Positions 9,754-35,403 are shown, counted from the stretch's first letter. The stretch: DNA of 55,370 nucleotides from Rhizaria sp. SCN 62-66 (GCA_001724265.1 MEDY01000317.1:1-55370), one strand, 5' to 3'. Translations and numbers: made by a program. Notes: generated by a model from the sequence alone, not told the origin.

Positions 9754-11925
9754 TCAGTCCCAGCGCGGCACCACGACGACCTTGCCGCCGTGCGTGCGGA
9801 TGCCGCCACGGCCCTCCACAACGACGTCGTCAGAGCTCTGCCCAGTCGCGCTCTCAACAGCAGCCTTCTCAGTCGCATTCTTCTCAGCAGTCGTCTTCTC
9901 AGCCGCAGTCTGCGAGGCGAGGCGCTCCCCACGCTCGCGCTTGCGGCCCTCGAAGAGCTCGAAGCCGGCCTCGACGCTGCGCACGGTCGTGTCCACGAAC
10001 GCGGTCACGGCGCCGGCGTCGGCCAGGCGCGCCAGGTGGGCTAGCGCGGCGGCGTTGGGTCGGAACACGGCCGGGGCAAAGCGCACGCCGCACTCGGCCA
10101 GCAGCCGGCCCTGCAGCTCGGCCACGGCCGCCGCCGCCGCCGCCGCGCCCGCCGCAACGCCCATGGCCCCCGGCGCGCGCGCGCGGCCGCCGTGGGCCGC
10201 GGGCGTGAAGTCCATCAGCAGTTTGTGCACCGAGACGTAGGTGCCGCCGCGGCGCAGCGCGCGCGCCGCCTGGAGCGGGTCGGCACCGCCGCAGTCGAGC
10301 AGCACGTCTGCGGGGCCGCACGGGAGCGGACGCGACCAGTCGAGCCCCGCGTAGTCGAGCACGGCCTCGCAGCCCAGCGCGCGCAGCGACGCGTGGTGGC
10401 GCGGCGAGCACGTCGCGGCCACGCGCGCGCCGTGCAGCCGCAGCAGCTGCACGGCGAAGCGGCCCAGTGGGCCCGAGCCGCCATTGATGAGCACCAGCGG
10501 CGCGCCCGCGGCCACCACGCCGCCCTCACTCTCGCACGCCGTTGCAGCCAGGGACGCGGGCTCAGACTCGGGCTTGTTCCCAGTGGCCTGGGTCTGGGGC
10601 TGGGTCGCGGTCTGAGGGGCGGGGGTGGGCTCGGTGCTGCTGGCTTTCGCGTTGCTGCTGCTGTTGCTGATGTTGTTGTTGATGCTGCTGCTGTTGCTGC
10701 TGATCGAGGGCGCGGGGAAGGCGCCGCGACGCATAAACGGCTTGCTACTACTGCTGTCCGCGTCAATACTAGCACCACCAGTCGGAGCAGAGACAGAAGA
10801 AGCAGGCACACTAGCAGTGGAGGGACTGGCATGACTGTTGCTGTTGTTGTTGGGAGCGACGGTGGCCGCGAAGTGGCTCGCCGCAGCGGCAGCCTTGCCG
10901 ACGAGCGCGCCCAGCCCGCTGCCCAGCCCGCCCGCGAAGCCGCCGAGCGCGCCAGCGTTGCTGCCGTCGCCGAAGCTCGCTGCCGCGGAGGCGGTGTTGT
11001 TCGCGGTGAAGGCGGCGCCGAGCTTGCCCAGAGCGCCGGCGCCGGCGCCGACAGCGGCGCCCGCGGCAGTGCCGACGGCGGCGGCGGCGGCGCCCGCGGC
11101 GGTGGCAACCTGTGCAGCGCGGGCGCCGGCGCCGAAGCCGGGGCCCAGCGCACCCGCGCTTACCGTCGCCGAGGCCGAGGCGACGGCGCCAGCGACTGCG
11201 GCGGCGGCGTTAAAGAGTGTGGCGCGCGCGTCGGCCGCGGCGGCGGCGGCGGCAGAGCGCGCGCGTTGGGCGCCGAGCGGGGCCGCGGGGGCCGTGTCGG
11301 GCGCGATGACGGCGGCGACGTCGACGAGCGCGGCCCAGGCCGTGAGCGCCGAGTACGGCAGCGCGGCGGCCTCGGCGTCGGTCAGGGTCGCGGGCGCGAG
11401 CGAGAGCTCCGAGGGACCCAGCGCGATGAAGCGTGCGTGCGTGCCGGGCGCGCGGAAGGGCGAGGGCGCAAACCACACGCGGTCACCGGCGCGGTAGTCC
11501 CAGACGCCCGCGCCGACGCGCACGACGCGACCGACGCCCTCGCGGCCCAGCACCACTGGCGGGCCGCCGCGCGCCAGCTCGAGCGCGTGCGCGCCGTAGC
11601 CCGCGGCCATGTCCGCGTCGATGGGGTTCACCGAGGTGGCCAGGACCTCGACCAGGACTTCGTGCGAGGCCAGCGCGGGCAGCGGCAGCGACACGCGCGC
11701 CAGCGCCTCGGCGGGCAGCGGCGAGTAGCGAGTCACGGCCACCGCGGGCATCGTCGCCGGCAGGCTCGCGGGGGCCCCGCGCGCGTGCGCCGCGCCGGCG
11801 CTGCGGGCGGAGGACAGGTGGCGCTAGGCGGGGATGTACAGCGGGAGCAACGTGGGAGCGAGCAGGCGCGGAGGGACGGCTACGCGCGAGCACACGCGAG
11901 CAGCAGCGCGGCGGGAGGCGAGCAT
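9754..11925 (-). CDS. RTN4IP1: Mitochondrial NAD(P)H oxidoreductase of the MDR family, RTN4IP1-like; presequence contains an in-frame TAG (11826-11824)
   Basis: EVLVEVLATSVNPIDADMAAGYG, PVVLGREGVG, EAAALPYSALTAW, VLINGGSGPLG, GGKVVV. An upstream in-frame ATG at 11925 adds an Arg-rich presequence with no acidic residues. TGA stop. Confidence 0.8.
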
Positions 11926-12523
11926 GCTGAGCGAGACCTGCGTGAAAGGCCGCCGGGAAAGAAAAATATGAAGTAATGGTGAGAAAAAAAGGAAATATTT
12001 AGGAATAAATACAGCGGTCTTCTAGTATATCTTCAAGGTGTCTCCAGAATGTTGATTGTGTGCAGCTGGAGCTAGGCATGCGGAGAGTGAGCAGGTGTTT
12101 GAAGCTTTGTCATCGTTGTTTCTTGCAAGTTGGGAAATTCAGGGGATGATGATCTTGCCCAGAGGTATTATAAAGGCTTCGTATAAGACGTTCACTCGCC
12201 ACACACATATAAGCATATAATTGTGTTTGACGATGGGTCAGTCGAGATTTTCAAATTAAAAGAGGCAAACGGCGTGCCAACCACATACGCAGACTAGAGC
12301 CGTTCGCCAAAAGAATGTTGGATCTCTGACGATATCAGAGCGAAAACCATGGTTTGAGAACGATTTCTGTTTAAAGTGTGACATTTTGGTATTATACTAG
12401 TATATTCCCTCTTAGTCGCGTATTTTCATCTTCTTCTCCCGCAGTTTGTGTTCCTGATTGCAGCCAAACGCAAAGAGATATTTTGGGCCGATATAGATCT
12501 TTTTCGACTACACCTCGTTTTTC

Positions 12524-13987
12524 ATGGCAGTTGCAGACTTGATGTCGCTTTCCCCAACAACGCAATCTAAAAAAGTGGAAGTGATAAAGACAGTTGTCAT
12601 GACGACCAGGATGTCAGAGTTAAAGGAGTTAATTGCTGTGTGCCTCGAGCGGGACCTCTTTGACTATCTTGCGCGGCTTCTAGATTCCTCATTGGATGAG
12701 CAAGACCACGACTGCACGCACGAGATAGTCCAGCTGCTTCAGGCCCTGGTGAACATGTCGACGCCCGCGGTCCTTGGGGCGCTGCTCGACTGCGGCGGCC
12801 TGGCTGAAGCGCTCTGCCGCGCGTTCACCGATGCGCAGCCCGACGCCGTGGCTACGGAAGCCGCCTGGCTGCTGGGCTGCCTTGCCGACATCGACCGCGA
12901 CGCCGCCGACGCGCTGGTCCGGCGCGGTGTGTTCGCCCGCGTTTGCGGGTTTATGTCCGAGCTGTACAGCGACAACGACGCCCCCTCGTTCGGAAAGGAC
13001 CTGAACTGCTCGCTGGCCTGGATTTTGAGCAAGTTCGCCTGCGCGACGCCGGCGCTGTCCCCGAGCGTGCTGGTGACGATGGTGCCGCTGCTGGGCCTTG
13101 TGCTGCACCGCGTCGTTGCGCGCCCGCACGCGTTTACTGCGCAGACCCTCGCCGTAAAGTCGCTGGCCCACATCTTCGACGCCGACTGCGACCCCGCGTG
13201 CTTCGAGAACCTCGTTGCCGGCGGCGAAGACAGCGTCTTCCACGCTGTGCTGGCCGACCTCGGCACGGACCACTCGGGACCCCGCGCCGCGCTGCTTTTG
13301 GTGGCCAAGGTCGCCGCGCTCAAGGGCGACGTCGCGGAGCGCGTCTTCACGCCGGCCGTGCTCGAGCGCCTGCGCGCATTCGCGTCGCGGCCCGCGTCCA
13401 ACGGCACGGACGGCTTCAAGGAGCAACTGATGGCAGTGGTCTCGCACCTGATGTGCAAGGGCCCTGCGATGGCGGCGCGCGTGTTCGCGTCGAACCTGCT
13501 GCAGACGGTGCTCGCGCGCGTGCCACCGCCGCCGCATAAAGGCCAAAGCTGGCACATTCTGTGGACGTTTATGAACGCTATGTCGACGATGGTCGCCGCT
13601 GTGCTGCATGCGGCGTCCGCGAGCGACGACAGCGACGGCGGTTCCCGGCTGGCGATGGCGCTGCTGCTGCACGACGCGGGCGTGATGAGTCACTGTGTGA
13701 AGGTGATTGCAGCTGCCACAGCCACGTCTGTGCTGCCTCCCACAACTTTAGTCGAGGTGATAGCTCTTATGATCGCGTCTGGCGACACGAACCCGGACCC
13801 CGCGGTGCTAGGCAAGGGCGCCAAGCCGCGCAATGTCTTTCTGGACGTATTCCTTGCAGAGGGCGGCCTCGGCGCGATGATGTGGTTGCGCCAGAGGAAG
13901 TTCGGGCAGGCGAGCACGACGAAGCTGGACTCGCTTGTGGAGGGTATTCTGGGAGGCATTGGGAAGGGCAATGCTGTGCCCTAGTGA
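12524..13987 (+). CDS. Divergent ARM-repeat (importin-alpha-like) protein, paralog of the 3583 gene
   Basis: 486-aa ORF with EAAWLLGCLA and LAWILSKFA (ARM helix-3 W motifs) and a C-terminal NVFLDVFLAEGGL. Ends TAG-TGA: 13984 under the standard code, 13987 if TAG is sense. Confidence 0.8.
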
Positions 13988-14877
13988 TGTGGGTCTGTTT
14001 TTTTTTTTGTTTTTAAAATACGTTAATACACATTTTCCCACTATTTTTATTTTTTTCAGCAAATTTCCCTTTGTAGCCATGACAGTGAGTCAGGCAGATG
14101 TGTCAGTTGCTCGCAAGTCTTGAATATGTATCGAAAGACGGCAAGCAGCATCACAAGTGAATCCATAAATACAATGTATTGTATATAAACAACAGAGATT
14201 TCTTTCAAAAAAACTTGAAACTAGCTGATTTGTTGACACATATCACAAAGTTCGCATAACAGCTTTCAAGTTCATGAAACAAATGCTCAAAGTTGCAACG
14301 TGCATGACAATCTGTAATCTATATTATACAGACAAAACATGAAAGCTATAAGCTACTTAAACATCCTTGCTGCCTATAATCTTCCTCTTGCTACACGTCT
14401 TTGAGAGCCCGAGCGCAGATGAGCCAGCTGAAAGCAGTGGCGCAACTTAAAGAATACGCTTCCAGTCTGAGTGGGAGCTGCAATCTTCGTGTTCAGACTG
14501 AAATCGACTAAATATACAAGGTTGATCAAGATAACTTTCACTTCACATTAATGTTAACTTGTTTAAAGACTATTAAAAATATTCATTTCTTGCACTGCAG
14601 CTGCTTTGCAGTATAATATTGTGGATTGGTTAAGTTGATCCCATTCTGCTTCCCTTCCTCTACATGATGTTCTTTGACGCGACATGTATCACGCTTAAGT
14701 ATAGATTCGATGCATTTTCAAGTTGTATCATACTTGTTATGTTATTTTATTTTATTGAATATAATTACCGAGACATCTTATAGTATGTTTATATCCCGCC
14801 GCTACTAACTCTTGATCTACTCTCGCACTTCCACCCATTCTGGCGACTCCATCTCTCTCTAGCTCTCTCGCCTCAAC

Positions 14878-15861: not shown

Positions 15862-16917
15862 TCAGTACCCGCTGCCGCCGCGCTTGCCCGTCAGCGGGTT
15901 GATCGCGAGCGCGCTGGGCAGGCGCTTGTCGCCGACGTCGCCGCGGCCTGTGTCCGCGCCGCCGACGCTGCTGTCGCGGTCGCCCGTGCCGCCCGCGCCG
16001 TCGCCGTAGACGCTCTCGCGCTTGGTGTACCGCATGTGTTCCTCGTCCGAGAGGCGAAGCACGCAGGCGACAACGCGGCGACGCTCCTCGCAGAGCAAGT
16101 TGAAGGTGCCACACGCGCGGTGCGTCGTCATGCACTCGTAGGGGATCTTGAGCATCTGCAGGAACTCGTGCGCCGCGGGCGGCAGCGGCCGCAGCCCCGC
16201 GCCGGTGCCCAGGATGAGGTAGTCTGGCGAGGGCGTGAGCAGGTGGAGGAAGGCCAGCGCCTCGGGCGAGACGTCCTCCCAGCGCTCGACGGCCCACGCG
16301 AAGGCCATGGCGGGCGTGGCCACCACGGACGAGTGGTACATAATCTCGTTAATGCCGATGACGCCCGCGCCAAAGCCCGAGATGACAATCGAAGGCAGCG
16401 AGTGCTCCCGCCGCTCCGCCCCACCGCCCTCCGACAGCAGCTGCGCGCCAGTCACCGCGCCCTCGCGCGCGCCGCCGCCCGCAGCAGCAGCAGCAGCACC
16501 CGCAGCACCCGCAGCAGCGGTGCCGGCGGCGGCGGCAGAGGCGCCAGAGGCGGCGTTGGGGTCGCCCGCGGTGGCGCTGAGGCTGGCCAGGAGGCTGTCG
16601 ACCTGCGCGACGCCGTCTACGTTGACGGCCGCCGGGACGGAGACCTCCTCGAGCAGAGGGCCCGTGCGCAGCTGGGGGCGCACGGGGCCGCTGGCAGCGC
16701 CGGGGGCGGGGGCGGCGCGGGGCACGGAGGACGTGGGCGGGGAAATGCCGCCGGGGAGTCCAGCGAAGGGGCGCGCAGGCAGCGAAGTCACAGTGGTTAC
16801 AGAGGTCACAGAGAGCAATGAAGGCAGTGAGGCGCGCAGCAGGGCTGGCGACGCCGCAGCGCAGCCGCGGAGGCTGCGAGTACCGCGCGGGGCCGAGAGA
16901 AGAAAGCGGGACAGCAT
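15862..16917 (-). CDS. NDUFAF3: Complex I assembly factor NDUFAF3 (Mth938/DUF498 domain)
   Basis: Mitochondrial presequence MLSRFLLSAPRGTRSLR; PSPDYLILGTG, IPYECMTTHRACGTFNLLCEERRRVVACV; TGA stop. Confidence 0.9.
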   Translation of the reverse strand: MLSRFLLSAPRGTRSLRGCAAASPALLRASLPSLLSVTSVTTVTSLPARPFAGLPGGISPPTSSVPRAAPAPGAASGPVRPQLRTGPLLEEVSVPAAVNVDGVAQVDSLLASLSATAGDPNAASGASAAAAGTAAAGAAGAAAAAAGGGAREGAVTGAQLLSEGGGAERREHSLPSIVISGFGAGVIGINEIMYHSSVVATPAMAFAWAVERWEDVSPEALAFLHLLTPSPDYLILGTGAGLRPLPPAAHEFLQMLKIPYECMTTHRACGTFNLLCEERRRVVACVLRLSDEEHMRYTKRESVYGDGAGGTGDRDSSVGGADTGRGDVGDKRLPSALAINPLTGKRGGSGY

Positions 16918-17443: not shown

Positions 17444-19903
17444 ATGCAGTCGAACCCCTTTGTCTCCGCGCCGCCCACTGGCGCGGGCTCGTCCTTACTG
17501 GCCCGCTTCCCCGGCTCCGGCCCTGCCGCGACGCCCGCGCCCCAGACGGAGCAGGCCCGCGCGGCGCGCAGCCCCTGGCTCGAGGCCTGGGCCTCCCCCG
17601 CCGCCGGGCTAGCGCGCACCTCTACCAAGCTCTGCGCGCTCGCCGACCTAGGCTCCGACGGCGCCTCGCGCTTTGTCGTGGCCACGGCGGCCCCCGCGCC
17701 GCGCCTCCGCGTCTTCGGCGGCACCGCGCTGGAGAAGGAGCTGGCCCTGCTCGACTCGCCCGTCGCGCTTGCCACCTTCTACCCCGAGCGGCCCACCGCG
17801 CGCTCCGAGCCGCTGCTGGCCGTCGCAGCGGGCGCGGCGCTGTTCGTGTACCGCGCGCTGCGGCCTTACGCCAAGTTCGCGCTGCCGCGCGTGATGTCGC
17901 CCGAGAAGGACCGCATGGTGTGGGAGCAGGTCGCCGCCGCGCCCGCGGTGACGGCCGCGCTCACCGAGCAGCTCCACGCCATCCTTGCGCAGGCCTACGC
18001 GGCCGGGCACGAGCTTTCGGCGCGCTCCGTTGACTACCTCAACCTTGGCGCGGCCTCCGCGCTCGCCAACGCGGGCGTCAACGCCGGCGCCGGCAACGCC
18101 GGCAGCGACGCGAACTCAAGCAGCAGCAGCTACAGCAGCAGTGAGCAGAAGCAGGACGGCGACGACGACGCGACCAAGAGCGCCGACGCCAGCGCCGACG
18201 CCAGCGCTGACGCCAGCGTCGCCAGCGCGGCCGGCGCCGCGCCCGCCGAGTCCGCCGCCGAGGCCGCGCGGGCGGCGCTGGCCGCGCGGCGCGTGGCGTT
18301 CGTGACGGCGGCGCGCGCGCAGCCGCACCGCGACGCCGCCGCCGTGACGTGTCTGGCCGCGGTGCGGCGCGCTGCGATGGCGGCGGGCGAGGGCCACGGC
18401 GTGGGCGACCGCGTGCAGTCGACGCTCGTGGTCGGGACCGAGCGCGCACAGCTGCTGTTCCTCAACCCCACTGTCACTGCCGTCACGGCCACGGTCACGC
18501 TGCCCGCGCCGCCGGTCAAGATGCTCGTGCTGGCCGGCAACGACGACGCCGCGGCGGCGTTAGCTGCAGGCGGCAATGCCAAGAGCCTGCTGCAGGCCGC
18601 GTCCCCGTCGATGGCCGCGGGCGGCGCCGGCGCGGGCTCGGCCGCAGCGGGCGCCGACGACCGGCTCTACGTGGCGTGCCGCGACGGGCGCATCTACCTG
18701 GTGCATCGGCAGAAGCTCGTCGGCAGCGTCGTCGACACGCGCGGGCTCTACTGCGACTTCTGCCTGCTCGACGCGGGTCGGCTGCTGGTGGCCACTGCCG
18801 ACGCGCAGTTGCAATGCTACTACCTGCGCGGCCTGCGCGCCTACTCGCTCGCGCTGCCCGCGGCGGCCGTCTCGCTGACGCCGCTGGCCTCGGCGGCCGA
18901 CGCGGCGACGGCGACGGCGGGCGCGGGCGCCGTGGTGCCAGTGCTGGTGGCGCTGGCCAACGGGGAGATGCGCGTCTACGCCGACCGCCGCCTGACGCAC
19001 CAGTCGACGCTGCCGTCGCCAGCCGTGGCCGCGCGCTTCGGCCGCTACGGGCGCGAGGACGGCGCGCTCGTGCTCGTGCTCGCTTCGGGCGCGCTCCAGG
19101 TCAAGCTGCTGCACCGCCACGCGCAGCTCACCGGCAGTGCGGTCGCCGTCGCTGGCGCTGGCGCTGGCGCTGGAGCTGCTGGTGCTGGCGCGAGCAGTGT
19201 GAACGTGGCCGCGGGCACTGCGCTGCCGCCGGCGGGGCAAGACGTGCCGCTGCCGGTGCCCAAGAAAAGCCACCTCTTTGTGCAGCAGGCCGCACGCGAG
19301 GCCGCCGCCGCCGCCGCGATGCACGCCGCGATGCAGCGCGACCTGGCGCGGCTGCGTCTGCTCACTGCGCGCGCGCTCGCCGCCGCCGTCGGCGCGGGCG
19401 GCGGTGGCGCCGGGGCCGCAGGCGCGTCGGCCGCCGCCTCCGCGTCCTCCGGCGGCGGCGGCGGGCGCGGCGGCGCTGCGCTGCGCGNCGCCGCCTCCGC
19501 GTCCTCCGGCGGCGGCGGGCGCGGCGGCGCTGCGCTGCGCGTGGAGACGCAGGTGCTGGGTCTGGGCCCCGCGTTCGTGCTCGAGGTGACGGTGCGCAAC
19601 ACTGGTGCGCGGCCCGCGCACGGCGTCGTGGTGACCGTGAGCGCGGACCCGCGCGCGTTCCGCGTCGAGCGCGGCGCCGCCGTGCTGCGGCTGCCCGTCG
19701 CGCTTCCCGCGCTGCCCTACCGCCTCACCGTCCCGCTCGCTGTCGCGGCGGGCGCCGGCGCAGGCGCGGGCGCGGGGGCCACGACGGGCGCGGTGACGGG
19801 GGAGGTGCGCGTGACCGTGGCGACGGCGGGGGCGGATGCGCCTGCCGTGACGGCCGTCGTACCGATGCCCACCGTGCAGTTCGACGCCGCTGGGGCCGCT
19901 TGA
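17444..19903 (+). CDS. BBS1: Bardet-Biedl syndrome 1 protein (BBSome subunit)
   Basis: WLEAWASPAAGL, ALADLGSDG, LFVYRALRPYAKFALP, LVVGTE, FGRYGREDG, LPVPKKSHLFVQQAARE, MQRDLARLRL. One N at 19488 sits at a probable assembly join. Confidence 0.92.
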   Translation: MQSNPFVSAPPTGAGSSLLARFPGSGPAATPAPQTEQARAARSPWLEAWASPAAGLARTSTKLCALADLGSDGASRFVVATAAPAPRLRVFGGTALEKELALLDSPVALATFYPERPTARSEPLLAVAAGAALFVYRALRPYAKFALPRVMSPEKDRMVWEQVAAAPAVTAALTEQLHAILAQAYAAGHELSARSVDYLNLGAASALANAGVNAGAGNAGSDANSSSSSYSSSEQKQDGDDDATKSADASADASADASVASAAGAAPAESAAEAARAALAARRVAFVTAARAQPHRDAAAVTCLAAVRRAAMAAGEGHGVGDRVQSTLVVGTERAQLLFLNPTVTAVTATVTLPAPPVKMLVLAGNDDAAAALAAGGNAKSLLQAASPSMAAGGAGAGSAAAGADDRLYVACRDGRIYLVHRQKLVGSVVDTRGLYCDFCLLDAGRLLVATADAQLQCYYLRGLRAYSLALPAAAVSLTPLASAADAATATAGAGAVVPVLVALANGEMRVYADRRLTHQSTLPSPAVAARFGRYGREDGALVLVLASGALQVKLLHRHAQLTGSAVAVAGAGAGAGAAGAGASSVNVAAGTALPPAGQDVPLPVPKKSHLFVQQAAREAAAAAAMHAAMQRDLARLRLLTARALAAAVGAGGGGAGAAGASAAASASSGGGGGRGGAALRXAASASSGGGGRGGAALRVETQVLGLGPAFVLEVTVRNTGARPAHGVVVTVSADPRAFRVERGAAVLRLPVALPALPYRLTVPLAVAAGAGAGAGAGATTGAVTGEVRVTVATAGADAPAVTAVVPMPTVQFDAAGAA

Positions 19904-33659: not shown

Positions 33660-35403
33660 TTAGACCTGGTTCATGCAGTCCTTAAAGAAGGCGCCCAGCT
33701 GGTTGATCGAGGCCATCGACAGCGAGTGCGCTAGACGGGGCTCCTGAGAGAAACAGAAGCAAGAAGAAGAGGTGTTGTAGGAATAGAGGTAAAGAAAGGC
33801 GCAAAGAGAGTACACAAATGAGTTTAAGTGCGAATATAATGAAAGTTGCGATGTAGAATCGTATGGCCCCGAGATGTCGATAAGGTTCATCGAGTCATCA
33901 TTTTAAGCACAGTCCATGATATTGCGTGGTGATATTACAGATAGAGCGAGCACGCACCTCGGTGAAGTGCGCGACGGTGACGCCCTTCTTGTCGAGCCAC
34001 TCCTTGGTGGCGCGCGCGTACTTAAGCGGCACGACTTGGTCCGCGGCGCCGTGGTAGATGAACAGCGGCGTCTGCTTCTGCACCACGAACCTGCAGCGGC
34101 GAACGCACGGGGTTCACGTGGGGGTACACGTGGGGGGTGCGCGTAAAAGAAAATAGGAAAAATGAGTTACCGTGAGCATAACAAACAGATACGGAAAAAT
34201 TAGTCAATGTAGAGCAACCATGGGGCATATCGTTGTGTTTATAACAAACAGAGAAATGATAGCAAACTTGCTAAGCGAATAGAGCGTGAGATACAAGTTA
34301 GAAGCAACGTACTCCTCGCGGTAGGGGATGAGGGCGTAGCCGGACATGACGCCCAGTCCGCCGAGCTGCTCCGCGGAGCGCAGGCCCATGTGCAGGGTCA
34401 TGGCGCCGCCCTGTACAGCAGCGAGTCGCGTAAGAAAACAAACAAGAATGTAGTTGTGAATGTGGGGGAGAAAAAAGGCAAGGATATAATACACGTATCA
34501 TAAGGACAGATTCGAGCTTATCGTGACGTATTTTCAAGTTAAAACGCGCCAAAAATTCCTAGTTTGCGTCTCAAGGTGTGCTTTAATAATTGAGTGTTTG
34601 TACGTACCTGGGAGAAGCCGCCGAGGAGGACGCGCTTGTAGGAGCCGAGCGCAGAGGCCTCGGCGTCGATGAGCTCCTGGACGAGCTCGGCAGAGGCCAG
34701 GATTGACTCGTCGTCCTGCTTGTCCTACGCTCGCAGTCGCCGCGATCGCAGTATCGCAGGAGAAACAATATAAGCGAAGGAAAGATGGAGTGAGTTGACA
34801 TATTTGAAGACAAGGTTATAGAAGAGTTTGAAGATCAAAGCAATCAAGTGAGTACACGACCACACATGTATACACATAGATCGAATAGTTAGAAATTCGG
34901 ATCTATATTGGCGTCACCACACGTACCTCGAAGCCGCGGTTGCTGCCAAGCGTCTTGATGTCGTACCAAGAGGGCATGACCATGCCGCCATTGACCGTGA
35001 CGGGCTGCTGCGGCGCGTTGGGCAGGATCACCTTGACGGACTTAGGCAGCTTGAGCATGTCGAAGACGTCGACAAAGCTCTCGCCAGCGTCGCCGAGCCC
35101 GTGCATGAAGATAACGGTGAACTTGTGCTCGCTCTGCGCGGGCAACACCACGGCGCGCTTCAGCAGGCGCGGCGCCGGCTTCGCGTCGGTCGACATTAGG
35201 CGGACGGGCTGCAGCGGCGGGCACGCGGTGCCCACGGAAGACGACGAGGAGAACGAGGCAGATGGCAAACAAGACGCAGCGGCGGATGCAGAGGAGGCAG
35301 CGGCGGCAGCGACGGGGGAGGTCGCGGTGGCGGCGGCGGTGAGAAGGGCGGCCGTGGCACACAGACGCAGCGGGGAACGGCGGAGGAGAGTGCGGGTAAG
35401 CAT
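33660..35403 (-). CDS. Acyl-protein thioesterase / lysophospholipase (LYPLA/APT family); exons 35403-34927, 34724-34608, 34410-34313, 34090-33958, 33743-33660
   Basis: IFMHGLGDAG, PVTVNGGMVMPSWYD, GGFSQGG (Ser), HGAADQVVP (Asp), LAHS (His). All four GT-AG introns are phase-compatible; TAA stop. Confidence 0.93.

Follow-up and report, generated by a model that had tools for sequence, protein, structure and literature searches.

A predicted RTN4IP1-like oxidoreductase gene on the minus strand of a 55,370-nt stretch of DNA from Rhizaria sp. SCN 62-66 (MEDY01000317.1:1-55370; hereafter the window) is preceded in frame by a presequence-like leader that contains a single TAG, raising the question of whether the enzyme is made with a mitochondrial presequence, by passage of the TAG, or from the ATG that follows it. 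The layout of the locus is established (Table 1): from the upstream start (ATG1) the order is 33 codons, TAG (codon 34), 24 codons and the downstream start (ATG2), the two ATGs lie 58 codons apart in the same frame with no other stop between them, and the frame from ATG2 runs for 665 codons to its TGA. The initial annotation of this DNA, made from the sequence alone, had all of these coordinates, the frame and the codon number right, and the R-x-L-S-S motif that it placed immediately after the TAG is found there, on translation, as R-H-L-S-S, which may be read as a presequence cleavage motif of the R-3 type. A search of all frames from 12078 to 11752 recovered no ATG besides ATG1, and the minus-strand ATGs within 12130-11752 are those at 12113, 12079 and 11925 only. 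ATG1 would therefore be the first AUG for any transcript that starts in the AT-rich leader upstream of it (11926-12078) and, since no AUG lies between ATG1 and ATG2, the latter could be reached by scanning or reinitiation. Start-codon context does not tell the two apart, as both have A at -3, and no clear consensus emerged among 14 other starts.

Table 1. Features of the leader and the enzyme gene, in window coordinates; bias values are codon bias in frame against the two other frames
Feature	Position	Strand	Remarks
AT-rich leader upstream of ATG1	11926..12078	-	No ATG in any frame; GC 0.41 over 11926-12060
ATG1, upstream in-frame start codon	11923..11925	-	A at -3
Codons 2-33: first half of a presequence-like leader, or body of a 33-codon upstream ORF	11827..11922	-	+0.22 bits/codon vs -0.55 and -0.64; GC 0.74
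In-frame TAG (codon 34), followed by C	11824..11826	-	Present in an independent DNA contig
24 codons from TAG to ATG2: basic, acid-free, very GC-rich, opening with R-H-L-S-S	11752..11823	-	+0.39 bits/codon vs -1.28 and -0.35; GC 0.88; within the RNA-run contig
ATG2: Met at the start of the conserved domain, likely main start	11749..11751	-	Met column of homologues; public gene calls
RTN4IP1-like MDR oxidoreductase body, with low-complexity insert of about 260 aa	9754..11748	-	Ends with TGA 9756-9754

The window codes for eukaryotic proteins, including the ciliary protein BBS1, for which a search returned one relative (P0124, 56% identity), and the stretch turns up in sequencing runs from bioreactors, wastewater and activated sludge. 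Its composition is sharply divided, with exons at about 75% GC (GC3 0.8-0.9) and spacers and introns at about 40% GC, and its intron donors are strongly fixed, the six that were read directly being four GTACGT and two GTGCGT. Scans of the window for tRNA genes and Rfam matches found none. A single N stands at 19488, inside the BBS1 ORF (17444-19903). Upstream of ATG1, a pyrimidine run (11938-11990, minus strand) closes with CAG at 11940-11938, 12 nt ahead of the ATG; it resembles the organism's intron acceptors, and an intron in the 5' leader may be possible. Over the 119-334 nt ahead of it, however, neither GTACGT nor GTGCGT is found as a donor; a GTATGT is present upstream at 12288-12283, and an RNA-run contig is colinear through it.

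By sequence, the gene belongs to the MDR oxidoreductases and is RTN4IP1-like. Pfam searches matched ADH_N (E 5.8e-12) and ADH_zinc_N_2 (23.8 bits, below the cut-off of 27), giving the two-domain make-up of the family, a GroES-like ADH_N domain followed by a Rossmann-type zinc-binding dehydrogenase domain. Human RTN4IP1 (2vn8) is the best solved structure, matched in two stretches at E 3.2e-30 against 4.4e-21 for the next chain, and both domains align to it, the glycine-rich nucleotide-binding stretch included; the RTN4IP1 identity given in the initial annotation is upheld by this match, as an assignment made from best hits alone. The likeness to human RTN4IP1/OPA10 (2VN8) extends to the family architecture of an N-terminal extension followed by the domains, and the gene described here differs from it in the TAG that interrupts its extension and in the insert between the two domains. 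This low-complexity insert (about 260 aa, 10500-11300, minus strand) is Ala/Gly-rich and then Asn/Ser-rich; in the protein of the nearest relative (P0125 and P0274), the first domain is likewise followed by a low-complexity insert, but one that is Cys/Ala/Lys-rich. RTN4IP1 is described as a NAD(P)H oxidoreductase of the mitochondrial matrix that is required for coenzyme Q synthesis and complex I assembly (PMC10830421, PMC12489013).

A HMMER search gave 6542 matches at E<=0.001; 19 of the top, RTN4IP1-like matches were looked up, and the six with an organism name comprised one bryozoan and five Amoebozoa (Acytostelium, Phalansterium, Balamuthia, Cavenderia and Polysphondylium), which makes it likely that the DNA comes from an amoebozoan. 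One word-based protein search returned bacterial dehydrogenases at 40-46% identity and another only the protein itself, and a metagenome scan added one bacterial homologue (L001, 40% identity) that starts at the Met equivalent to ATG2; neither the word-based protein search nor the metagenome scan yielded DNA of a close relative for this locus. Membership of the family and the order of extension, Met and domain are established: when aligned with 10 homologues, all 10 have residues ahead of the domain (about 16 to more than 100 aa, in extensions that align unreliably), and seven of the 10 have a Met in the column of ATG2. For Balamuthia mandrillaris two forms are annotated, one of 378 aa that includes the extension and one of 339 aa that begins at that Met. 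The nearest relative, whose representative P0125 is 53% identical, has a longer form (P0274) with an open, basic extension that lacks a stop. Public gene calls in two strains start at ATG2 and give 665 aa. The Met at the start of the domain in seven of 10 eukaryotic homologues could be either left over from a bacterial start or in wide use as a second start that serves dual localisation.

On either side of the TAG, the leader resembles the coding sequence of a protein N-terminus, and it does so in one frame only. Based on a codon model trained on 8018 codons from 11 other ORFs, codon bias is positive in this frame on both sides of the TAG (Table 1) and negative in both other frames (-0.35 to -1.28 bits per codon), as would be looked for in read-through; for reference, off-frame windows score -0.19 at their 95th percentile and the first 33 codons of real genes score from -0.09 to 1.07. 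GC content rises from 0.41 in the 135 nt ahead of ATG1 to 0.74 between ATG1 and the TAG and 0.88 from there to ATG2, such that the step is located at ATG1 and not at ATG2; at 11 other starts, the preceding 99 nt have GC contents of 0.37-0.59. The 58-residue leader contains eight R/K and two H but no D/E, acidic residues appearing from residue 73 onwards; its net charge is +8 and its maximum helical moment 1.89, compared with net charges of +4 to +7 and moments of 1.22-1.88 in the extensions of the homologues. Counted from ATG2, the first 33 aa have a net charge of 0 and the first 58 aa one of -4, which agrees with the initial annotation that the shorter ORF lacks a presequence. That annotation had also called the leader Arg-rich and acid-free, correctly as to composition, but such likeness to a presequence is common by chance in GC-rich DNA: the criteria of no D/E, at least eight R/K and at most one stop per 58-codon window are matched by 18% of 7412 off-frame or antisense windows from the local GC-rich genes (and by 0.5% of 1484 in-frame windows). 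Because of this frequency, the basic, acid-free make-up is by itself weak evidence for a presequence, and the GC step and codon bias are stronger evidence than the charge composition. Two other genes of the window, a DUF498 protein at 16917 (minus strand) and an Abhydrolase_2 protein at 35403 (minus strand), have uninterrupted basic N-termini of the form M-L-S/T-R, making the stop in the RTN4IP1-like leader exceptional in the window; the DUF498 family is presumably NDUFAF3-like.

The TAG is not an assembly slip, and its presence in the DNA is established. A DNA contig of 4222 nt spans 10433-14654 with 0 differences; it is identical in runs X2 and X3, which we accordingly counted as one confirmation, and X1 is possibly the source sample. 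For 11752-11925, none of the four runs compared, all of them as assembled contigs, has a differing letter or an indel listed. In the polyA-RNA run X4, a contig covering 11184-11828 also has 0 differences and reads the TAG 3-5 letters from its end, which does not bridge the TAG by the 31-letter rule. Of the region 11820-11900, for which the initial annotation proposed cDNA reads, this contig covers the part up to its end at 11828, short of ATG1. An ENA protein variant from a second strain (P0123) is identical at 664 of 665 residues and is likewise called from ATG2; the second strain presumably carries the stop too. A sequencing or assembly error at what is truly a sense codon therefore has next to no chance of being correct: the region is very GC-rich and its depth low (about 5-8), but the contig from another sample, the RNA-run contig, the four runs free of variants and the protein call of the second strain all stand against it, and the initial reading of a TAG in the DNA, for which a CAG would have been the telling variant, holds. 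The TAG allele is found in runs dated 2015-2017 and again at the end of the 2025 RNA contig (X4), a weak hint at a fixed, tolerated state rather than a passing defect. Polymorphism at the contig breaks at 11828 (X4) and 11844 (X5) was considered and dropped, no other letters or indels being listed there; the pieces listed for X5 around 11844 are largely AT-rich DNA.

It is most improbable that the TAG is a sense codon of a variant nuclear code. Nuclear codes with a sense TAG (e.g. NCBI table 15) likewise show an in-frame TAG inside an apparently coding stretch, but here the instance is single, against no TAG in 8018 codons of 11 other ORFs, and ORFs of 1661, 1405, 928 and 827 codons stay open without one; in-frame TAGs in many genes were not found within the window. 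A census of stops flanked by coding-like sequence flags 15; as we read the census and ORF data, 14 of them fall in frames that are off or antisense to stronger ORFs, and just this TAG is left. The window has no tRNA gene, the named nearest homologues are from Amoebozoa, and we know of no nuclear code with a sense TAG in that group. In favour of such a code, TAG accounts for only one of the roughly 16 apparent terminal stops that we count in the window, and this one is directly followed by TGA, so that TAG is not proven as a terminator; it belongs to the gene at 12497-13984 (plus strand), with tandem stops TAG and TGA at 13981-13986, all other terminal stops being TGA or TAA. A generally used sense TAG is excluded for the window. 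Removal of the TAG by a small or unusual intron, joining ATG1 to the body of the gene, is very unlikely, although 18 GT..AG pairs (16-131 nt) span the TAG, nine of them frame-keeping (39-129 nt), and a pyrimidine-rich run precedes it. The donors of these candidates (GTGTGC, GTGCTC, GTAGCC, GTCCCT, GTTGCT and GTACAT) differ from the two donors read in the window, the GC content of the candidate introns is 0.62-0.83 whereas the DNA just after the donors read is AT-rich, and the introns sized in the window (n = 3) measure 167-214 nt; the initial annotation had likewise set such mini-introns apart from local introns. The X4 contig is colinear across the candidate acceptor at 11765, continuing for more than 31 letters in either direction, and extends 27 letters past the acceptor at 11801 and 4 past that at 11824. 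Among the 15 contig joints listed out of 166, none is of the intron type; GC-rich sequence from other organisms dominates the joints and loose ends of this set. A non-AUG start past the TAG, such as the CTG at 11817-11815, would provide a short presequence without read-through, and N-terminal extensions of this kind are known in other organisms. In-frame CTG codons do follow the TAG, but the resulting extension would have only about 22 aa with two Arg, R-H-L-S-S would lie at its very start and the codon stands in an unfavourable context (C at -3, T at +4), making this route, too, highly improbable.

We put a probability of roughly 0.55 on the reading that a genuine TAG splits an ancestral presequence and that the enzyme is made mainly from ATG2. 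Under this reading, the TAG would act as a stop of the standard code within a present or recent mitochondrial presequence, and translation would begin mainly at the Met with which the conserved domain starts throughout the family, either by ribosomes that pass or reinitiate after the 33-codon ORF from ATG1, which ends 72 nt upstream, or on an mRNA that begins downstream of ATG1. The main product would then lack a presequence, and a mitochondrial form would arise only via occasional near-cognate decoding of UAG-C; we infer both the choice of start and what becomes of the upstream ORF. The reading is favoured by the TAG in the independent DNA contig and at the end of the RNA-run contig, by the Met of the homologues at ATG2, the short Balamuthia form and the public calls at ATG2, by the absence of TAG from 8018 codons of other ORFs and of further sense-frame stops from the census, and by the lack of an AUG between ATG1 and ATG2 and of read-through signals save the C at +4. 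The end of the RNA-run contig at 11828, between the two ATGs, is a further, weak hint in its favour. Near the start, the X4 pieces listed cover 11184-11828 and 12062-12328, and the gap between them (11829-12061) is uninformative, the listing being limited to the 8 longest pieces of each run. The contig at 12062-12328 (depth 2) lies in the AT-rich spacer between two divergent genes; it may stem from an extended 5' leader of one or the other, from a transcript that lacks an annotation or from DNA carry-over. Against the reading stand the intact 665-codon body and its presence in the polyA-RNA run, the in-frame codon bias of both leader halves, the GC step at ATG1, the neutral to acidic N-terminus from ATG2 and, weakly, the recurrence of the TAG allele over the years; a form without a presequence would moreover be expected to be misplaced, as mammalian RTN4IP1 acts in the matrix (PMC10830421, PMC12489013). 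The arrangement resembles an upstream ORF, in that a 33-codon ORF opened by an AUG ends 72 nt before the main AUG with none between, but differs from a typical one in being in frame with the main ORF and in having coding-type composition and codon bias; its presence on the mRNA is putative. It also resembles dual targeting by two in-frame AUGs, in the order ATG1, basic extension, ATG2 and domain, in the Met of seven of 10 homologues and in the two annotated forms of B. mandrillaris, except that here the stop ends the long form after 33 codons and ATG1 on its own yields a short peptide.

For a complete presequence to be translated from this DNA, the TAG has to be passed, and in this structural sense the claim of the initial annotation that the presequence depends on read-through is sound; that the TAG is in fact passed did not find support. 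Functional read-through, in which UAG-C would be decoded by a near-cognate tRNA to give a mitochondrial isoform while ATG2 gives a cytosolic one and the stop sets the ratio between the two compartments, is in our estimate unlikely. It would account for the coding-type bias that a single frame shows before and after the TAG and for the GC step at ATG1, and it fits an intact gene body, a family with presequences whose namesake is a matrix enzyme (PMC10830421, PMC12489013), the TAG allele recurring in the 2015-2017 runs and at the end of the 2025 RNA contig, and the C at +4, which favours leakiness in a statement made for UGA in PMC12233894. The same paper describes UAG as less leaky than UGA, and the context (GCC-TAG-CGC-CAC) contains neither a CARYYA nor a CUAG motif and has C, not A, at -1 and -2, such that only the C at +4 fits a leaky stop. 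No stimulatory structure was found in the downstream RNA either, the 100-nt fold giving z +1.37 with 186 of 200 shuffles folding at least as well. Of the ortholog comparison that the initial annotation had proposed as a check, the nearest relative speaks against it, its extension (P0274) being without a stop, and among the papers listed in our literature search none, by title or abstract, describes read-through inside an N-terminal targeting signal. Known dual-localisation read-through concerns peroxisomal forms of metabolic enzymes in fungi and animals (PMC4207609) and is similar in that a stop separates signal and body and is followed by C; in the known cases, as described in PMC12233894, the signal is C-terminal and the stop is UGA with CUAG, whereas here it is UAG-CGC and the targeting signal is N-terminal and putative.

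If the stop merely truncates the long form, the locus would be an ordinary case of a premature stop or upstream ORF before an internal start, in a poorly sampled protist. For annotation, the start is to be placed at ATG2, with no change of code assumed. That the stop within the presequence serves as a translational gate, with read-through of UAG-C giving a matrix form and the conserved internal AUG a cytosolic form, we consider quite unlikely. Read-through inside an N-terminal targeting signal would be new if shown, none of the papers listed in our search describing it. Such a gate, if true, would mirror at the N-terminus what C-terminal read-through does in adding peroxisomal signals, and read-through, if it is used, would divide an enzyme between mitochondrion and cytosol by a mechanism that is new.
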